A stretch of 39,816 nucleotides of DNA from Burkholderiales bacterium (GTDB lineage: Bacteria > Pseudomonadota > Gammaproteobacteria > Burkholderiales > Burkholderiaceae_D), in the NCBI GenBank assembly GCA_044445195.1, contig JBIODP010000001.1, positions 1-39,816 on the forward strand, given 5' to 3'. Shown here piece after piece: positions 24,864 to 36,464 of the stretch; position 1 is the first letter of the stretch, and each line of letters starts with the position of its first letter. The position numbers and the translations under genes are program-made. The notes under the pieces were generated by a model. That model was not told where the DNA came from. It made no database searches and worked only from the letters and a program-made list of their open reading frames with translations.

Positions 24864-27653
24864 ATGCGTGGGAGTATGGCGTACAAAATCGTTATACCAA
24901 GCCTGTATTGGTTAACTGGCATCTTGTCTTTTGCCACGGGTCACCATTTACTTGCTGCGTTTAATCAACCTCGCGACCGAGCGCAGTTATTATTCAGTGG
25001 CATTACTTTTTTGTCGGTGCTTCAAGCAATTTCTTTTATTTATACCTTGCAGGCAGTCAACATCGTTGAGTATGTCGATGCGCTCAGATGGAATATTGCG
25101 GCTACCCTCCTGTTAATGCTTTTGCTCCCTTGGTTTATCGCCCTGCTTACGGGAATAATCCCGCGCTCTTTTCTGCTGTGGTTCAGCGTGTTGCAAGTTG
25201 TATTTTTCGCGGTAAATTTGGCACAGCCGTACACTTTACAATTCGATCATTTAGATGGACTTCATACCCTCAACTTGCCATGGGGCGAACAGGTCACCCG
25301 CGGGCATGGGCACCCAGGTTTCGTGACATATGCAGTCATTTCTGTAGTGGCGTTGAATTTTGGCTTCACTTTATATGCCCTGGCAAGCGCATATCGTCGT
25401 GACCGCAAGCTGATGGACTTATGGATGCTGATCGCTTTCTGGCTGTATCTGCTCTGTGGAATTGAAGGCGTTCTTGCACGACTGTCTATCGTGGAATTCA
25501 TTGAAACCGGTCCGGTCGGCATCTTGGCAATGGTAGCGGTCATGAGCGCTGCACTAACCTTTGAAATGCAAAAGCGGGTACGTACCTCCGAGCGGCAATT
25601 CCGTTCCCTATTTGAAAATTCACCTACCGGATTAGTCGCCATTGATCCGGAAAGCCGGTGCATTGTGCAAGCCAACCGCATTGCACTGGAAATGAGCGGG
25701 TTTAATTCCGAAGAGATTCTCACCAAGACTGTTGCCGAGTTAACATACCCTGATGATTTGAATCAGTCGGAATACCGGCAATGCTACGAACAACTTTCAA
25801 GTGGGGTCATTGATCGCTTGTCTTATGAAAAACGGTTCCTCAGAAAAGATGGGAGTAGTTTTTTCGGACTAACGTCAATCTCAACTCTCAAGGATGAGCG
25901 CGGCAAGATTATGCGCTTCATTGGCAGCACCATTGATATTTCCGAACGCAAGGAGATGGAAGATGCTTTGCATGAAAGCGAGTTTCGATTTCGCACCATC
26001 ATTGAACAATCGCCTATCGGCATTGCATTTTCACGAGATGGAATTATGCTCGATGCAAATGAAGCCCTGTTGCAAATGTTTGGCCACAAAGATGTTGCAG
26101 AGGTGCGTGGACAACCCATAGTCAACCGGATTGCCCCACAGTGCCGGGCGGAAATTGAAGAGCGGATCAGAAAACGTTCTTTGGGTCAGCCAGTTGAAGG
26201 AACTTTTGAAACAATCGGTTTGCGTACGGACGGCTCACAGTTCCCATTACTTGTTTCGGTTAAACGCATCGTACTGAGTGATGGACCATTGACCTGTGCT
26301 TTTGAAATCGACATGACCGATAGTAAGGCGGCAGAAGAAAAGATCAAACATTTGGCTTTCTATGACCACCTCACCGATCTTCCTAACCGACTGCTTTTGC
26401 TCGATCGCCTCCAACAAGCAATGGCTTCCAGCGCGCGCAGCGGGAAACAGGGCGCACTGTTGTTCGTTAACCTGGACGACTTCAAATCGCTTAATGATAC
26501 CTTGGGTCATGCTGCGGGAGACTTGCTGCTGAAGCAGGTAGCGCGACGATTGACTTCGAGTTTGCGCGAAGGCGATTCAGTAGCACGGTTCGGTAGTGAT
26601 GAATTCGTCGTATTACTGCAAGACTTGAGTGGGCAGCTTATTGAGGCGGCGGAGCAAACAGAAATTGAATGTAATAAGATTTTTGATTCGCTCAAGCTAC
26701 CGTACCAACTTGGAGCACATGAATACCAGTGCACCATCAGTATTGGCGCAACCCTGTTCAAAGATCATCAGCAGACAAAAGAAGATCTGATAAAACAGGC
26801 TGACATCGCCATGACTCATGCCAAGAAGTCCGGGCGTAGCAAGCTGCGTTTCTTTGATCCTAAAATGCAGGCAGCTATTGACGCTCGTACAGCACTTGAA
26901 GGTGAACTACGTCATGCGCTTAAAAAAGAACAATTCCAGCTTCACTACCAAATCCAAATCGACAATTTTGGCCGTCCAATCGGAGCGGAGGCGCTTATCC
27001 GCTGGATACACCCTGAGCGCGGTTTGATTTCTCCCGCTCAATTCATTCCATTGGCAGAAGAAACGGATTTGATTCTGCCGATGGGGCAATGGGTGATCGA
27101 GGCAGCTTGCGCCCAGCTTAAGGCATGGGAGCGCGATGAAATGACACGAGACCTCGTTTTGGCGGTAAACATCAGCGCCAAGCAATTTTTCCAGGCTAAT
27201 TTCGTTTCTCACATTATGGCAACGGTGCATTGCCATAATATAAATTCCAATCTTCTCAAGCTTGAATTGACCGAAAGTATTTTGGTCGATGACATTGAAG
27301 GCACCATTTTAATTATGAGCGCATTGAAAAAAATCGGCGTCAGCTTCTCGCTTGATGACTTCGGAACAGGGTATTCATCCTTGCAATATCTTAAGCGGTT
27401 ACCGCTCGACCAGCTTAAGATTGACCAATCATTTGTACGCGACCTTGGCACCGATAGCAACGATGAAGCACTGGTGCGCACCATAATTTCAATGGCGCAA
27501 AGTTTGAATCTGGAGGTCATCGCAGAAGGCGTCGAAACCGAAAGCCAGCGGGAATTTTTGCTGAAAAACGGTTGCACCCGGTACCAGGGGTTTCTGTTTA
27601 GCAGACCATTACCGGTTGAACAATTCGATGCATTACTGAGCAAGGCTGCATAA
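24864..27653 (+). CDS. Membrane-bound c-di-GMP signalling protein: ~7 TM N-terminal domain, two PAS domains, GGDEF (GSDEF variant, RxxD I-site) and EAL
   Basis: Seven hydrophobic segments in aa 1-235. PAS blocks (FENSPTGL..., IIEQSPIGIAF...). REGDSVARFGSDEF at 26565-26606. EAL at 26988-26996, plus ELTES, DDFGTGYSS and KIDQSF. An alternative start is ATG at 24876. Confidence 0.9.
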   Translation: MRGSMAYKIVIPSLYWLTGILSFATGHHLLAAFNQPRDRAQLLFSGITFLSVLQAISFIYTLQAVNIVEYVDALRWNIAATLLLMLLLPWFIALLTGIIPRSFLLWFSVLQVVFFAVNLAQPYTLQFDHLDGLHTLNLPWGEQVTRGHGHPGFVTYAVISVVALNFGFTLYALASAYRRDRKLMDLWMLIAFWLYLLCGIEGVLARLSIVEFIETGPVGILAMVAVMSAALTFEMQKRVRTSERQFRSLFENSPTGLVAIDPESRCIVQANRIALEMSGFNSEEILTKTVAELTYPDDLNQSEYRQCYEQLSSGVIDRLSYEKRFLRKDGSSFFGLTSISTLKDERGKIMRFIGSTIDISERKEMEDALHESEFRFRTIIEQSPIGIAFSRDGIMLDANEALLQMFGHKDVAEVRGQPIVNRIAPQCRAEIEERIRKRSLGQPVEGTFETIGLRTDGSQFPLLVSVKRIVLSDGPLTCAFEIDMTDSKAAEEKIKHLAFYDHLTDLPNRLLLLDRLQQAMASSARSGKQGALLFVNLDDFKSLNDTLGHAAGDLLLKQVARRLTSSLREGDSVARFGSDEFVVLLQDLSGQLIEAAEQTEIECNKIFDSLKLPYQLGAHEYQCTISIGATLFKDHQQTKEDLIKQADIAMTHAKKSGRSKLRFFDPKMQAAIDARTALEGELRHALKKEQFQLHYQIQIDNFGRPIGAEALIRWIHPERGLISPAQFIPLAEETDLILPMGQWVIEAACAQLKAWERDEMTRDLVLAVNISAKQFFQANFVSHIMATVHCHNINSNLLKLELTESILVDDIEGTILIMSALKKIGVSFSLDDFGTGYSSLQYLKRLPLDQLKIDQSFVRDLGTDSNDEALVRTIISMAQSLNLEVIAEGVETESQREFLLKNGCTRYQGFLFSRPLPVEQFDALLSKAA

Positions 27654-31309: not shown

Positions 31310-31678
31310 TTACGCGCCGACTAATTTTTTAAAGGTCGCCAGGACGGCATCGCCCTTGAATGGCTTGACTATCCAGCCCTTGACGCCGGCAGCCTTGCCG
31401 CGCTCTTTCATGAGCGGTGAGTTGACCGTGGTCAGCATGATGATGTTGACAGTGCTGTTGCCGAGTTCGTTGCGAATTTTTTCGGCCATGGTCAGGCCAT
31501 CCATGATCGGCATGTTGACGTCGCTCAGCACGAGCTTGATATTGCTATCCGCCTGGAGTTTCGCCAGTCCATCGCGCCCATCGATGGCGCATGTTACGGC
31601 AAGACCATTTTTCGTCAGAAAATCGCCCACTTCGTTGCGAACGGTGCTGGAGTCGTCGACCACCAGTATTTGTGCCAT
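31310..31678 (-). CDS. cheY: Single-domain CheY-like response regulator
   Basis: D8-D9, D53 in LSDVNMPIMDG, T83/T84 and K105 in VKPF. All receiver active-site residues are present. Confidence 0.9.
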   Translation of the reverse strand: MAQILVVDDSSTVRNEVGDFLTKNGLAVTCAIDGRDGLAKLQADSNIKLVLSDVNMPIMDGLTMAEKIRNELGNSTVNIIMLTTVNSPLMKERGKAAGVKGWIVKPFKGDAVLATFKKLVGA

Positions 31679-31697: not shown

Positions 31698-32672
31698 TTA
31701 AAATAATTCCAATTCGCCGGACTCGAACCAAGCTTCGACCGAAACCTGGTTTACTTTGAAGTCGTCCGGAGACCAATTCAGATTGAAAACAAACCGTTGA
31801 TAAATGGTCAGCGGCAGCACATCCTTGTCGTTTTTTGCGTTCAGCGTATATTTGAAACACAACTGCGGATCTTCGGAACCGAATGAAATATATCGATGCA
31901 AATGATTGACAATAATCGGGACCTGCGACAGTTGCGCAATGTTATCAGAATGCGAGATATAGCGGTTTTTGAAGGTGCCCCAAATAAGATTCGTGATTTC
32001 CCCCAAAATATTGTTCAGGTGCCGAAAATCGTTGTTATTGTCGGACGCAGTGTGTGTTCTTTCGGCACGGACCAGATGCAGCAACGGCTCCTCCTCGACT
32101 TGCAGCATCATGTAACCCCGGCACCAACTGCTTTCGAGTGGGATCATGGTAAAGATCTCCCCGAAAATAAGCCTGTCCCGGACCAGATACGGCGCCTCGA
32201 CATCGATACCCATATCATTGAACTGGCTTTCCAGCGCCGTTATCGTCAGCTCCACGATTCCGCGAATCAGGGCGTTAGGGTAGACCTGGCTAAATATGCT
32301 GGCGTCTATGGCGCTGCGCAAACTGGCGATGTCTGCAATCGTGTAGGAGGCGCTGAATAATTTTCTATCTTTCCCGGAAAGATTATCCGGATAAGGGATT
32401 TCTTCCCGACGCAAAAAAATCGGCAATTCCGGACGAATGCGATGAATCTCGCGCGCTAACGCGATGCCCCCATTGTCGTTGCCGCCATAGCTTTCCGAAA
32501 GCAATATTCCACCCAGATCTATGTTGGATTTCAATACCGGTAATACGTTTTCCTCATGAACCTTAAGGCCCACCAAATTGTGGGTGTCGCAAAATAGCTT
32601 GATCTGGTCATAACATTCGGTATTGCTGTCCAAAACAAGCACCTTGCTGACCAGTGTTGCTCGATCGTTCAT
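31698..32672 (-). CDS. Pseudo-receiver domain fused to a CheX-like phosphatase domain
   Basis: The N-terminal ~125 aa follow a receiver-like beta/alpha pattern (VLVLDS...GGILLSES...PIFLRR) but lack the phospho-acceptor Asp. The C-terminal half carries GEITN-x23-P, resembling the CheC/CheX ExxN-x22-P motif. The protein ends in SGELELF. Confidence 0.7.
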   Translation of the reverse strand: MNDRATLVSKVLVLDSNTECYDQIKLFCDTHNLVGLKVHEENVLPVLKSNIDLGGILLSESYGGNDNGGIALAREIHRIRPELPIFLRREEIPYPDNLSGKDRKLFSASYTIADIASLRSAIDASIFSQVYPNALIRGIVELTITALESQFNDMGIDVEAPYLVRDRLIFGEIFTMIPLESSWCRGYMMLQVEEEPLLHLVRAERTHTASDNNNDFRHLNNILGEITNLIWGTFKNRYISHSDNIAQLSQVPIIVNHLHRYISFGSEDPQLCFKYTLNAKNDKDVLPLTIYQRFVFNLNWSPDDFKVNQVSVEAWFESGELELF

Positions 32673-32688
32673 ACACTATTCCTTCTTT

Positions 32689-33243
32689 CTAAAAAAATTC
32701 CAGTTCCCCGGTAGCTGCTTCCTCATCGTCTGCCTTTACAGAGAAATCCAGGTCGGCATGATCGCAAACGCATAGGCTGACAGGAAACGAAAAGCTATTG
32801 TTGAGATTGACCGTGAAATGCCGAATATGACCGCAGCCCAGCACATTCAGGTAAGACGCGCAATTTTTGTCGATGATGTTGGGCGTCGACATGTCGATGT
32901 GGGAAAAGAACTGGCCTAAATCGCGGTTGAATATGCCACAGCAAATATTTCCGTATTCGCCGACGGCGTCATAAAACGATTGTTCGTTCATATCTTGCAT
33001 CCGCATGCCGTTGAGCCTGGCGTAGTGCTCTTTCGTCGCATCGTCCGGCGTAAAATAAATCAGGATCATCAACCGGAACAGATGCGATGAAATGGTCAAG
33101 ATGGCGATCCTGGTTTCTTTTATGGCGGACATTTCATTGAAGGCAGAAATGTCGCAGGTATCCTCCGCAGATTTTTGCAGGCTTGCTTTGAGGGCCTGTG
33201 CCAGTAAATAGTCGAAGCCGTCGCGCGCGCTTTTGCTGATCAT
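32689..33243 (-). CDS. CheX-like CheY-P phosphatase
   Basis: AVGEYGNICCGIFNRDLGQFFSHIDMSTP aligns with Thermotoga CheX AIGELGNMTAGKLAMKLEHLGKHVDITPP (from memory). Ends in TGELEFF. Confidence 0.7.
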   Translation of the reverse strand: MISKSARDGFDYLLAQALKASLQKSAEDTCDISAFNEMSAIKETRIAILTISSHLFRLMILIYFTPDDATKEHYARLNGMRMQDMNEQSFYDAVGEYGNICCGIFNRDLGQFFSHIDMSTPNIIDKNCASYLNVLGCGHIRHFTVNLNNSFSFPVSLCVCDHADLDFSVKADDEEAATGELEFF

Positions 33244-33255
33244 GGTTGTCGCCGG

Positions 33256-33975
33256 TTATGCAGCAAGCGCATCTTTGGTTTTTTGATTGGTCAACCCCAG
33301 TCCGACGATGGCGCTGGTGATCATCTTGCCCCCGGCCTGCAGGTCCTGGAAGGTGGTTGTCGAGATCAGGTCGTTTTGAAAGAGATTGCTGCGATAATCG
33401 TTCGACAATTTTTCTGCGCGATTGGCCAAGGTTCTCACCTCGTTCGCCACTACCGCGAAACCGTGCCCATGCACGCCGGCCCTGGCGGCTTCGATCGAGG
33501 CGTTGAGGGCCACAATCACCACTTGCTTGACGATCAATGCAAACTCATCGTTTTTAGCCTGTATTTCCCGATTGTGCGTGATCAACATATTCATGTTGGC
33601 ATGCCAGCGCTCAAAAGTCTTGGTCAAGTCAAGCAACCGATCGATTGTTTCCGTCGAAAAATCACAATGCCGGATGATCGCTGTTTTAATAGCCGTATTG
33701 CTTTCCGTGACTTGGCCGATCAAATTCTCGTGATCTTTCTTCAGCCGATGGCTGCGGGCATCGGACGCGGTTTTTTCCTGCTCAAGCAATTGTTGGCATT
33801 GCTCTATTTGAGTTTGCATTTCCTGCAATGTCAGTTGCCAATTCCGTTCGGCTGTCTGTGCCTTTTCAAGTGGGATCATGGCGGAGATGGTTTGCTTGAG
33901 TGTGCGGATTTTCCACCACATGACGCCGCAGCAGCCGAAGAGCGTCAGCAATAAAATCGAGATTGCAATGACCAT
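33256..33975 (-). CDS. Mini methyl-accepting-chemotaxis-like protein: one N-terminal TM helix plus a truncated MCP signalling domain
   Basis: ALNASIEAARAGVHGHGFAVVANEVRTLANRAEK matches the invariant MCP hairpin tip (LALNAAIEAARAGEqGRGFAVVAdEVRkLA). Only 239 aa. Confidence 0.8.
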   Translation of the reverse strand: MVIAISILLLTLFGCCGVMWWKIRTLKQTISAMIPLEKAQTAERNWQLTLQEMQTQIEQCQQLLEQEKTASDARSHRLKKDHENLIGQVTESNTAIKTAIIRHCDFSTETIDRLLDLTKTFERWHANMNMLITHNREIQAKNDEFALIVKQVVIVALNASIEAARAGVHGHGFAVVANEVRTLANRAEKLSNDYRSNLFQNDLISTTTFQDLQAGGKMITSAIVGLGLTNQKTKDALAA

Positions 33976-34007: not shown

Positions 34008-36464
34008 TTACGCTGTGTGAAAATTGGCATCGCCAAGGCCTGAGCCTTCTCCGGGGTTGCGGTCGGCTCCGGGCCCGGTATGTTGCCCGGAGGTGGCAGC
34101 AGCGGCGGCAGGCACATCGCCGCCGTCAATGTATGCGGCCATGCTTTCAGGTAGAAAAACAAGGATTTCAAATTGTCGGAACTCGGCGCCGATCGCCTCA
34201 TCGGTGAAGCGGATTTCCACTTTTCCCTGTTCGCGAGCAACGAAATCCTGCACAGCATCCATGCCGACGCCGCGCCCGGATACGGCAGTAACTTTATCGG
34301 CGGTTGAAAAACCGGGTCGGAACACGAGGCGGGCGATATCTTCATCGCTCATTTTGTCTGCGGTGGCGTCAAGCCCTTTTTCGATGGCTTTCTTGCGAAT
34401 GCGGCGCAGAGCCAGGCCGGCGCCGTCATCGCGCAGGGCGATTTGAAAAAAACCGTCAGCGGTACCCGCCCGGATGTGGATCGTGCCGACCGCCGGCTTG
34501 CCTGTTGCGATTCGTCTTTGCGCAGTCTCAATGCCGTGGACCACGGCATTGCGGATCAGGTGCATAAATACGTTCTTCAGCATGCCGCTGGCCTGATTAT
34601 GCACCACGTAGCCGCGGTCTTCGATGGTGACGAGCGGCGTAGCCTTGCCAAGTTCCTCGGCAAGTGCCGGCAGTGAAGCGAGCACACTGCCCAGAGTGTC
34701 GGCGATGCGTTCGGTTCCCAGCAGGCGCAGCGTCCTGCGCACAGCATCGCGCGCGGAAATCAATTCGTGCAGATTGGCGGTATTGACTGTCTCCAGACGA
34801 TGCAGGCTATCCTGTATATGCTGCTTGTCAACCAGCAGATAACGTTCCACACTGCCGCGGCGACCGGGCCCTCTGCGGCCCAATGTGACTTCATTGATCC
34901 TGACGTAACGCTCGAGTAATGCCTCGACCCCTGCCAACTCGTCCATCAATGCAGCCTGATCCCAGACAACGGTGGTGTCCGGCATGCGCAATTGCTCGTA
35001 ACTTTGTTCAGCCTGATGGACGATATTGGACAGATGCAGCAGCCCGTACGTGCGGCTATTGCCTTTGATCGTATGCATATTGCGGAACAGTTTCGCGATG
35101 GCGAATTCATGCCGCTCGGCGTGCTGTCCGATCAGCAGCGCATTTTCCTCGATGAACCTGACGGAGCCGGCGATGAATTCGTGGAACTTTTCCTGGTCGA
35201 CCGCCAGTATTTCACCGATAATCTCCAACTCGCGTTTCTGGTCGTTGGCCTCAGCTGCCAGCTTGCGTAATTCTGTGACGTCGCGCACGCATAACATCAA
35301 ACGCACGATCTTGCCGGCATCGTCGGTAATAGGCGACCAGTTCAAATCCAAAATTTTCATGCTACGGTCCGGCATGGTCTTTTCTATCTCACCGACCATC
35401 AAGTGCTCATTGAACTGAAAATTCATGAAGTCTTCGCCAATGCAAGCGCTGGCTGCGGCATCCACTTGCGACAGGGTGTCGGCGCCCAGATTCGTCTTGG
35501 AAAATACCAAGTCCACCAGGTCGCGCCCGGCAATATCCCCAGTCTCGAAAACCGTTTCGAGATAAGCGGAGTATTCCGGGTGAATTCTGTTGCCTTCCGC
35601 TACCGTCAAGATACCTTGAGGAATGTTTTGCAGCATGGTCTGCATGTCGGTAGTCTTTTGTTTGAGTTGAGCCGAACTCTCTTCAATTTTTTCAATCATG
35701 CCGTTGAAGGCAACAATTGAGCGTCCGATTTCATCGTTCCGGCCGACGGGAACCCGGCGGGTGAAATCCTGGCTGGAAGCGATTTCAGTCATCATCATTT
35801 GCATTCTGCTGATGGGGCCGATGATTGCGCGATAGAGAAGCATCCCGATCGCGGTCAGGAAAATGACAGCGATGACGGTGACGACCGAGATCGTCGTCGC
35901 AGTGGTCGCCATATTCCGGTTCAATGCTTCTATGGCGTTATCCTTGCTTCGGTTTTTTTCCACTCTCAGCGTCGTTACGATGACTTCAAGTTCCGCCTGG
36001 TATTGAACCACATTCCCAAAAAATGAAGCCTGAGCAAGCTCAGCCTTGCCTGCCAGTTTGTTTTTTACGGTTTCGTCGATTGCGGTCAAATAATTGGCGA
36101 GACTTTCCTTCGCCTGCTGTACCAAACCGCGTTGCGCATCGCTGTCAGCGCCCTGGGATTGCAGATCGATGGTTTTTCGTAAAAGGGTTTTCTTTGCGCT
36201 CAGGTTTTCCATCGCTTCGGTCGCCATGTTACCGGCAGGCGCGTATACCACGGTCATTACCGCCAGTTGCACATCCTTGAGTTGCGATACAAGGTCAGCC
36301 GAGGCGAGCGCGCTGGGCACCACGCCTTCCGTTACGGTTTTTACATCGGACGCGCTTCTGCGGGACTGGAAAACGGCGTAACCGCCAATAGAGGAGAGAA
36401 TGAGGAAGGTCAGGATGACCAAGAGTGTGATGCGATGACGAATGCTCATGTCCCGACCTTCCAT
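34008..36464 (-). CDS. Transmembrane CheA-like histidine kinase: periplasmic helical sensor, HAMP, PAS-like, Hpt (P1) and CheA-type ATPase (P4), with no CheW-like P5 domain
   Basis: - TM segments at aa ~12-32 and ~188-212.
- HAMP: GPISRM...GRNDEIGRSIVAFNGM.
- Hpt: FRNMHTIKGNSRTYG, with the His464 codon at 35073-35075.
- CheA-type boxes: HLIRNAVVHGIE, DDGAGL, FRPGFSTA, SGRGVGMD.
- Only ~45 low-complexity aa follow the ATPase.
- The start may be ATG at 36449, which has a GGAAGG SD sequence. Confidence 0.85.
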   Translation of the reverse strand: MEGRDMSIRHRITLLVILTFLILSSIGGYAVFQSRRSASDVKTVTEGVVPSALASADLVSQLKDVQLAVMTVVYAPAGNMATEAMENLSAKKTLLRKTIDLQSQGADSDAQRGLVQQAKESLANYLTAIDETVKNKLAGKAELAQASFFGNVVQYQAELEVIVTTLRVEKNRSKDNAIEALNRNMATTATTISVVTVIAVIFLTAIGMLLYRAIIGPISRMQMMMTEIASSQDFTRRVPVGRNDEIGRSIVAFNGMIEKIEESSAQLKQKTTDMQTMLQNIPQGILTVAEGNRIHPEYSAYLETVFETGDIAGRDLVDLVFSKTNLGADTLSQVDAAASACIGEDFMNFQFNEHLMVGEIEKTMPDRSMKILDLNWSPITDDAGKIVRLMLCVRDVTELRKLAAEANDQKRELEIIGEILAVDQEKFHEFIAGSVRFIEENALLIGQHAERHEFAIAKLFRNMHTIKGNSRTYGLLHLSNIVHQAEQSYEQLRMPDTTVVWDQAALMDELAGVEALLERYVRINEVTLGRRGPGRRGSVERYLLVDKQHIQDSLHRLETVNTANLHELISARDAVRRTLRLLGTERIADTLGSVLASLPALAEELGKATPLVTIEDRGYVVHNQASGMLKNVFMHLIRNAVVHGIETAQRRIATGKPAVGTIHIRAGTADGFFQIALRDDGAGLALRRIRKKAIEKGLDATADKMSDEDIARLVFRPGFSTADKVTAVSGRGVGMDAVQDFVAREQGKVEIRFTDEAIGAEFRQFEILVFLPESMAAYIDGGDVPAAAAATSGQHTGPGADRNPGEGSGLGDANFHTA

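Follow-up and report, generated by a model that had tools for sequence, protein, structure and literature searches.

The operon described here raises a question about protein ends: why should two diverged proteins of one chemosensory system finish with almost the same six residues? The window (the whole stretch of DNA analyzed, 39,816 nucleotides) comes from a Burkholderiales bacterium (assembly GCA_044445195.1, contig JBIODP010000001.1). It holds a five-gene minus-strand operon that encodes a sensor-kinase, a protein of 239 amino acids (aa) with the signaling tip of a methyl-accepting chemotaxis protein (MCP), two CheX-type proteins of 184 and 324 aa, and a 122-aa CheY. An earlier note on this DNA had described two CheX-like paralogs with a common GELE(L/F)F ending and suggested that the ending is a docking peptide. 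We find that the tail is not private to the two CheX paralogs: its family is on record for McpA-like receptors, and it also ends CheD and CheZ-like proteins.

Two CheX-Type Proteins and Their Common Tail

The features of the two proteins are as follows (pLDDT, predicted local distance difference test of AlphaFold2).

32689..33243, minus strand: predicted CheX-type phosphatase, 184 aa (Pfam CheX 27.4 bits; pLDDT 87.7; Foldseek)
32692..32727, minus strand: acidic linker (predicted to be disordered) and tail GELEFF, residues 173–184 (pLDDT <50)
32692–32709, minus strand: tail GELEFF, residues 179–184 of the 184-aa protein
31698..32672, minus strand: predicted fusion of a pseudo-receiver and a CheX domain, 324 aa (Pfam CheX 35.4 bits, residues 174–275; pLDDT 80.2)
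32292..32654, minus strand: receiver-like domain of the 324-aa protein, residues 7–127 (receiver fold, VIA-align Z ∼13)
31773..32291, minus strand: CheX domain of the 324-aa protein, residues 128–300 (VIA-align versus 1xko_B)
31701..31718, minus strand: tail GELELF, residues 319–324 of the 324-aa protein

The common ending and the otherwise loose similarity reported in the earlier note were both borne out. The 184-aa protein ends in ...EEAATGELEFF and the 324-aa protein in ...WFESGELELF. Outside the tail the two can hardly be aligned, and BLASTP matched them only in the region of the catalytic motif (13/49 identities, 27%, E 0.15) and at the C-terminus (10/21 identities, E 0.22). When the whole assembly (2.8 Mb in 490 contigs, 89% complete) was scanned in six frames, these were the only open reading frames (ORFs) with endings of the form G-E-[LIMV]-[DE]-[LIMVF]-F. 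A looser pattern added a single ORF of at least 80 aa, which encodes CheD.

The assignment to CheX held up in profile and structure comparisons. The match of the 184-aa protein to the CheX profile (Pfam PF13690) is marginal against a cut-off of 27 bits. In a Pfam scan of the whole genome the two proteins scored 28.3 and 38.3 bits, and they were the sole CheX matches. AlphaFold2 models were built from alignments of 44 (184 aa) and 52 (324 aa) relatives; the mean pLDDT of the five 324-aa models spans 69.8–80.2. Foldseek matched the 184-aa model to the solved CheX structures 1squ, 1xko, 6vpw, and 3hzh_B (probability 1.00, TM 0.56–0.74); Thermotoga, Vibrio, Desulfovibrio, and Borrelia are represented among the matched CheX structures. 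The CheX domain of the 324-aa protein superposes on T. maritima CheX (1xko_B) with a Z of 15.6 and a root-mean-square deviation of 2.9 over 152 aligned residues. The catalytic signature of CheC/CheX proteins is D/S-x3-E-x2-N ... P, of which we take the E-x2-N pair and the downstream Pro to be the catalytic residues. E96, N99, and P121 are invariant in the 184-aa family (44 sequences), with D92 at least 90% conserved, and E225, N228, and P252 are invariant in the 324-aa family (52 sequences). In the 324-aa query itself, the residue four before E225 is Asn, not Asp or Ser. On sequence and model, we regard both proteins as CheX-type, with a predicted role as phosphatases of phosphorylated CheY (CheY-P). 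In the receiver-like domain of the 324-aa protein, a Glu (E60, codon 32493–32495; at least 90% conserved) follows strand 3 (residues 55–59) at the place of the acceptor Asp of CheY. By reading of the sequence, the usual Thr and Lys are missing as well. The domain is probably a pseudo-receiver that lacks the phospho-acceptor Asp and may be held permanently in a single state.

The earlier note had proposed aligning orthologues over the terminal GELExF, and the alignment found the tail kept throughout. All 40 homologues of the 184-aa protein (41–100% identity; two are fragments) end in G-[ED]-L-E-[LMF]-F. Among the matches listed for the 324-aa protein (of 1830), 120/120 end in G-E-[LIM]-[ED]-[LFMIV]-F. 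Within the 184-aa family G179, L181, E182, and F184 do not vary, and E180 reaches at least 90% conservation; in the 324-aa family the invariant residues are G319, E320, and F324, with L321 and E322 at least 90% conserved. The dozen residues ahead of the tail in the 184-aa family are variable and acidic. AlphaFold2 predicts residues 173–184 to be disordered, with a pLDDT of ∼41 for the tail itself. The tail of the 324-aa protein was modeled with a strand at residues 321–323 (pLDDT 81 for the last block, 56–68 for the linker). At distant loci in other genera, both tails are kept in 6/6 complete five-gene loci, and a seventh locus, which lies on a short contig and has only the 324-type gene, keeps its tail too. 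The recurrence of the tail is far beyond chance. Because the tail is conserved, and the linker that precedes it is variable and (in the 184-aa protein) predicted to be disordered, we read the tail from sequences and models as a short linear motif, apparently under strong selection, at the end of a flexible tether. A conserved end on such a linker fits the docking peptide suggested in the earlier note; comparison with other systems makes CheY its candidate partner.

The Tail on CheD, McpA-like Receptors, and Small Proteins

The CheD found with the looser pattern (202 aa; contig 3, 5445–6053, minus strand; locus L001) ends in GDIELF. Its gene belongs to a flagellar cluster, flhDC-motAB-cheY-cheA-cheW-cheR-cheD-cheB-cheY. 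The solved Thermotoga CheD aligns only to residues 29–171, and the 31 residues at the C-terminus form an extension beyond its fold. The length of this extension is fixed: in 39 genomes the tail lies 79–82 nucleotides past the Pfam domain. DNA was then scanned with the pattern G-[DE]-hydrophobic-[DE]-hydrophobic-F-stop, which gave 44 matches in 41 relatives (6 for a reversed control) and at least one match in 96 of 301 genomes across the class. The tail-bearing ORFs that were fetched fall into four groups: CheD, MCPsignal proteins of ∼400 aa encoded two genes after cheD, small proteins of 154–208 aa, and the CheX pair of the five-gene module. These ∼400-aa proteins are the McpA-like receptors known from F7 chemosensory clusters. 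A sister form of the tail, [DE]-[IV]-[DE]-L-F, closes three kinds of protein in F7-type clusters: CheD, the McpA-like receptors, and the small proteins, which have a CheZ-like QFxDxxxQ motif. One further carrier, a 545-aa HAMP-MCP without the QFxD motif (genome G081, L057 6949–8583), ends in DDDSGDIELF, and ordinary receptors can thus carry the tail.

For the McpA-like receptors the tail has been described. According to the accessible parts of Ortega et al. 2020 (PMC7184735), the McpA C-terminus is highly conserved and of unclear role. P. aeruginosa McpA has Val at position 2 of the pentapeptide and, of the four CheRs of this species, is reported to bind none (Ortega et al. 2020, citing Garcia-Fontana 2014), and 0/39 McpA-like proteins fit the published x-[HFYW]-x2-[HFYW]. 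The tails in their Table S12 include DIELF, EVELF, EIELF, EIDLF, DLELF, and TVELF. The same source describes early F7 systems as having their own CheY and lacking CheZ. In those parts of the paper we found no mention of CheD, CheX, or small proteins as carriers. Literature searches, with the supplements of other papers outside their scope, returned no function for the tail and no tail on CheX-type, CheD, or CheZ-like small proteins; nor did they find in print the two flavors of the tail or the link to a W-type CheY that are described below. What appears to be new, within the scope of these searches, is the motif on CheX-type enzymes, CheD, and CheZ-like small proteins; terminal-peptide tethering and the McpA motif are known.

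The tails come in two flavors, which differ at position 3 of the hexapeptide. This residue is Leu in 40/40 tails of the 184-aa family and in 118/120 of those listed for the 324-aa family (158/160 module tails). It is Ile or Val in all F7 tails from the loci examined (56/56), made up of 20/20 CheD, 16/16 McpA-like, and 20/20 small proteins. Among the strictly matching tails of 150 listed representatives of the small-protein family, it is I in 80, V in 24, M in 3, and L in none. The search pattern allowed all of these residues, so the pattern itself cannot have produced the split. Both flavors are present in the genome that holds the window. Two flavors suggest two paralogous partners.

The small proteins were examined for kinship with CheZ. 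They are homologous to the C-terminal part of the McpA-like proteins (hhalign 99.1%, E 5e-19). A profile of the small proteins searched against 1.84 billion representatives found 4806 relatives at E ≤0.001. The 150 diverse representatives among the matches listed are all members of the family; 149 of them have QFxDxxxQ, and ∼143, by our own count, have an [IVM]-[ED]-L-F-type tail. Pfam CheZ was the commonest weak match (32/116 members, best E 1.2e-6; the next family matched 9). An alignment of 116 sequences matched one of 16 CheZ sequences (hhalign 77.9%, E 1.8e-5), with QFxDxxxQ in register with FQDLTGQ, the CheZ segment that we take to hold the catalytic Asp and Gln. In a protein atlas, the nearest named clusters to one small protein were CheD fragment, CheZ, and MCPsignal at 0.76–0.77, values that serve as leads only. 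A CheZ-like function of the small and McpA-like proteins is, from these comparisons, probable but not established.

One relative was examined in full (G004). Its 182-aa small protein (L042 6135–6683) has motB on one side of its gene and, directly adjoining on the other, the first cheY of the flagellar cluster, an F7 cheY. The protein matches no Pfam family and has the invariant QFxDxxxQ and a GD[IV]ELF tail; judged by its sequence, it is probably a remote CheZ-type phosphatase. Similar small proteins occur in other relatives (L013, L017–L021, L023–L026, L028, and L030). The flagellar cluster of the window's own genome lacks such a gene. The canonical CheZ of this genome and 15 others end in ...LL(A/S)(D/S)LGF, a conserved acidic end that is presumably the CheY-binding peptide. 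The canonical cheZ lies on contig 15 (5418–6014, L002), apart from the contig of the flagellar che cluster, where unrelated genes come after the last cheY; the split may reflect a rearrangement or an assembly break.

Candidate Partners of the Tail

The other three genes of the operon supply the candidate partners within the module.

31310..31678, minus strand: CheY-type response regulator, 122 aa, the proposed partner of the tail (Pfam Response_reg 77.6 bits)
33256..33975, minus strand: membrane-anchored protein with the tip of an MCP signaling domain only, 239 aa (Pfam MCPsignal 59.7 bits, residues 127–194)
34008..36464, minus strand: sensor fused to a CheA-type kinase (4HB, HAMP, PAS, Hpt, HATPase; Pfam; NCBIfam CheA models 150 and 128 bits)

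The operon CheY is of a kind that we call W-type, with Trp at the switch position in the motif GW-[IL]-VKPF. It is 44–45% identical (90–97 bits) to the F7-type CheY of its own genome and of a relative, and 38–41% identical (63 bits) to F6-type CheY. The operon and F7-type proteins have in common the Trp and a basic helix 4. The homologues listed for the operon CheY are 82–89% identical to it. Almost all residues from M90 to G109 (helix 4 to strand 5), including the switch residue W102, are invariant in 35 sequences.

The distribution of the tail was compared with that of the W-type CheY. The pattern GW-x-VKPF was found in 83/301 genomes. Tail and CheY motif occurred together in 68 genomes, the tail only in 28, the CheY motif only in 15, and neither in 190. 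In these counts and in the CheD counts that follow, related genomes are not independent, and leaving out three unpublished genomes that are included (G077, G155, and G310) shifts each count by at most 3. Many of the tail-only matches ended in TGG, and most of those examined lay in short ORFs. Five tail-only genomes looked plausible; three of them (G070, G273, and G290) have no ORF of at least 90 aa at the match, and the other two have real tails at contig edges. CheD gave the closest view. The exact tail was present in 39 of 116 CheD domain matches, all 39 in genomes with a GW-x-VKPF CheY and 32 within 20 kb of it. Another 25 CheDs lie near a W-type CheY without the exact pattern. Twenty of these were fetched and 19 C-termini recovered: in 17 the tail is a near variant, in which Ser or Thr replaces the first Gly, position 2 is Gly, or 1–10 residues follow the Phe, and one has an exact tail that was absent from the match list. 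Of 20 CheDs away from a W-type CheY, 11 are short, without the extension, and several others have aromatic tails such as ...VEFW. We regard the co-occurrence with W-type CheY as supportive, not decisive.

CheDs that are not beside a W-type CheY (as at L135, L138, L141, and L140) often have other aromatic endings: ...DVEFW, ...SVDFW, ...GTELW, and ...GITYF. These differing aromatic tails hint at further tail codes for other chemosensory classes.

The reading that we put at slightly better than even is that the tail is a flexible tether of each CheX-type phosphatase to its cognate W-type CheY, by analogy with the CheZ peptide. The strongest argument for it is that one motif sits on two unrelated phosphatase folds; more widely, the motif recurs on proteins of unrelated fold, all of which act on CheY signaling or close to it. 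The operon CheY fits as the partner because it is W-type, with an invariant helix 4 to strand 5 face. From these comparisons we infer the binding itself, the identity of CheY as the partner, and the site of binding. The two tails would be flexible C-terminal docking peptides that tether the phosphatases to the W-type CheY encoded at the end of the operon. The tether would raise the local concentration of substrate and give pathway specificity, as the CheZ C-terminal peptide does with the flagellar CheY. The tail belongs to a wider code, [G/S/D]-[DE]-aliphatic-[DE]-L-F, whose Leu flavor occurs on the CheX pair of the CheW-less module and whose Ile/Val flavor occurs in F7-type clusters, on CheD, the McpA-like receptors, and the small CheZ-like proteins. 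Each flavor would address its own W-type CheY paralog and so keep the module and the F7/flagellar pathway apart. On CheD, the tail could be a direct handle for CheY-P; the CheY-P-to-CheD role is played by CheC in Bacillus, according to the accessible part of PMC3513319.

A broader version, which we offer tentatively and hold to be somewhat improbable as a whole, would make [DE]-aliphatic-[DE]-L-F a general address label for the W-type (F7-lineage) CheY of Beta- and Gammaproteobacteria. The McpA-like proteins and their small relatives would then be the missing CheZ-type phosphatases of F7 systems, CheD would be coupled to CheY-P without CheC, and the Leu flavor would have been reused for two CheX enzymes.

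Several observations weigh against a tether to CheY or against parts of it. The peptides known to bind the helix 4/strand 5/helix 5 face of CheY are helical, and the alternating hydrophobic and acidic pattern of the tail, together with the strand predicted at residues 321–323, points to strand addition. The 324-aa tail was placed at moderate confidence in a monomer model and may dock in cis. Because the tails move together with entire clusters, their co-occurrence with CheY does not single it out as the partner over the CheA-type kinase or the MCP tip. A few CheDs have 1–10 further residues after the motif. The flavor rule is not absolute, as the published McpA tail DLELF (Table S12) has Leu. 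Kinship of the small and McpA-like proteins with CheZ is insecure: a profile of 16 small proteins searched against the Protein Data Bank (PDB) sequences did not find CheZ and returned only coiled-coil noise and a repeat artefact, and smaller alignments matched CheZ with hhalign values of only 39.6% and 28.2%.

The alternative that survives best, though we think it unlikely, is that the tail anchors the phosphatases, and in F7 systems CheD as well, on the signaling complex, at the CheA-type kinase core or the MCP tip, where CheY-P is made. CheZ is localized to receptor clusters in E. coli. A CheA-type kinase core and an MCP tip are, like the W-type CheY, present in every genomic context of the tail, and a tether to the array would suit CheD, which acts on receptors. 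However, the McpA-like proteins hold an MCP tip of their own yet keep the tail. The module kinase and the F7 CheA have only the Hpt and ATPase core in common, and nothing specific singles out the kinase or the MCP tip.

It is less probable still, to the point of being doubtful, that the tail acts in cis or between the paralogs, binding either the pseudo-receiver or the CheX domain of the 324-aa protein, where it would serve as a latch for autoinhibition or hold a 184/324 hetero-complex together. The strand formed by the last residues of the 324-aa model, better placed than the linker before it, would suit such a latch, as would the disorder of this motif in the 184-aa protein, where a receiver-like domain is absent. 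The variation among the five 324-aa models tempers this. Mutual information between the tail positions and the rest of the 324-aa family gave a diffuse signal only, and CheD, McpA-like, and small proteins carry the motif without a pseudo-receiver.

Two further alternatives have very little probability. The tail shares with the receptor pentapeptide that recruits CheR or CheB a C-terminal position after a linker and an x-hydrophobic-acidic-x-Phe outline, and genes for CheR and CheB are present in the genome's flagellar cluster. The module itself has neither a cheR nor a cheB gene, and position 2 of the pentapeptide is aliphatic, which departs from the published aromatic pattern. The CheR version is largely refuted by the missing aromatic and by the published McpA result, in which a tail with Val at this position bound none of the CheRs (Ortega et al. 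2020, citing Garcia-Fontana 2014). A C-terminal degradation signal that keeps the regulators short-lived would be conserved, exposed, and hydrophobic at its end, as the tail is, but it is hardly credible given that system-specific Leu and Ile/Val flavors and occasional residues past the Phe are unexpected for a general protease tag, and the tail resembles no degron known to us.

Peptides that tether signaling proteins, of which the CheZ tail and the NWETF pentapeptide are known examples, set the speed and the insulation of chemotaxis pathways. If the tail tethers its carriers to W-type CheY, it would be a third peptide code, common to CheX-type, CheZ-like, and CheD proteins. Such a code would explain the insulation of a CheW-less kinase module from the flagellar pathway in a cell with several CheY paralogs. 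It would also point to a way in which F7 systems, having no CheZ, could turn off the CheY that belongs to them, and the address-label version would explain the conserved McpA C-terminus of "unclear" role.

Surroundings of the Operon and Comparison with Known Systems

Pfam and NCBIfam scans found no CheW-like or CheY-binding domain in the sensor-kinase. The organisms with related loci include Herbaspirillum, Inhella, Burkholderia, a Rhodocyclaceae bacterium, an unclassified gammaproteobacterium, and a Methylococcaceae bacterium. The order of the five genes is the same in 4/7 of these loci and rearranged in 2 more; the seventh is the short contig. The 239-aa MCP-tip protein is kept in the module at six other loci and has no tail itself. 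A special kinship of this protein to the McpA-like receptors was looked for and not found (BLAST 52–59 bits, versus 50–57 for other MCPs of the genome). The Comamonas Flm pathway was considered as a described equivalent of the module; it is Tfp-class, with CheW, and hence unrelated.

The two CheX-type genes are not always adjacent: in one genome (G309), a divergent 196-aa CheX-like ORF that ends in GELELF (L103 6515–7105) lies on a contig other than that of the 324-type gene and CheY (L102). In the window, the genes that flank the operon (36536–39816 and 24864–27653) look unrelated. Judged by sequence, the first two ORFs of the flank resemble a response regulator of the KdpE type (232 aa) and a sensor kinase of the KdpD type; the latter continues past the end of the window. 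Upstream lies a 929-aa membrane protein with apparent PAS, GGDEF, and EAL regions.

Four known systems bear comparison with the tailed CheX pair. Stand-alone CheX proteins (T. maritima 1squ/1xko, B. burgdorferi 3hzh, and V. vulnificus 6vpw) have the same fold and the catalytic E-x2-N on a long helix. Their solved chains (150–159 residues) stop with the fold, aligned to residue ∼155, whereas the proteins of the window add a linker and the tail; the 324-aa protein has, in addition, its N-terminal putative pseudo-receiver. The McpA-like receptors of F7 clusters (PA0180, VCA1088, and SO_2117) also place a C-terminal motif, [DE]-[IVL]-[DE]-L-F, after a linker. ELELF fits this motif, and ELEFF differs from it at pentapeptide position 4. 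The carriers here are CheX-fold proteins of a CheW-less module rather than receptors with the QFxDxxxQ region, and hexapeptide position 3 is Leu instead of Ile or Val in nearly all of them.

The earlier note had named two precedents for a docking tail, and they fared differently. The NWETF-type pentapeptide, the CheR/CheB tether, resembles the tail in its C-terminal position, flexible linker, x-hydrophobic-acidic-x-Phe outline, and tethering logic. The tail is not of this type, since its position 2 is the aliphatic Leu (ELEFF and ELELF) in place of the aromatic; its carriers are enzymes, not receptors, and for the related McpA tail a lack of CheR binding is on record (Ortega et al. 2020). The other precedent, the C-terminal CheY-binding peptide of CheZ, is closer. 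Like the tail of these predicted phosphatases, it is a short, Phe-ended peptide, acidic and hydrophobic, that a CheY-P phosphatase carries beyond a linker. It is helical, and its site on CheY is the helix 4/strand 5/helix 5 face. The tail differs from it in sequence, in a carrier fold that is CheX, and in an alternating pattern that is likely to be of the strand type. The 184-aa protein has the CheZ-type layout of a flexible linker with an exposed terminal peptide, its linker being variable, acidic, and below a pLDDT of 50.

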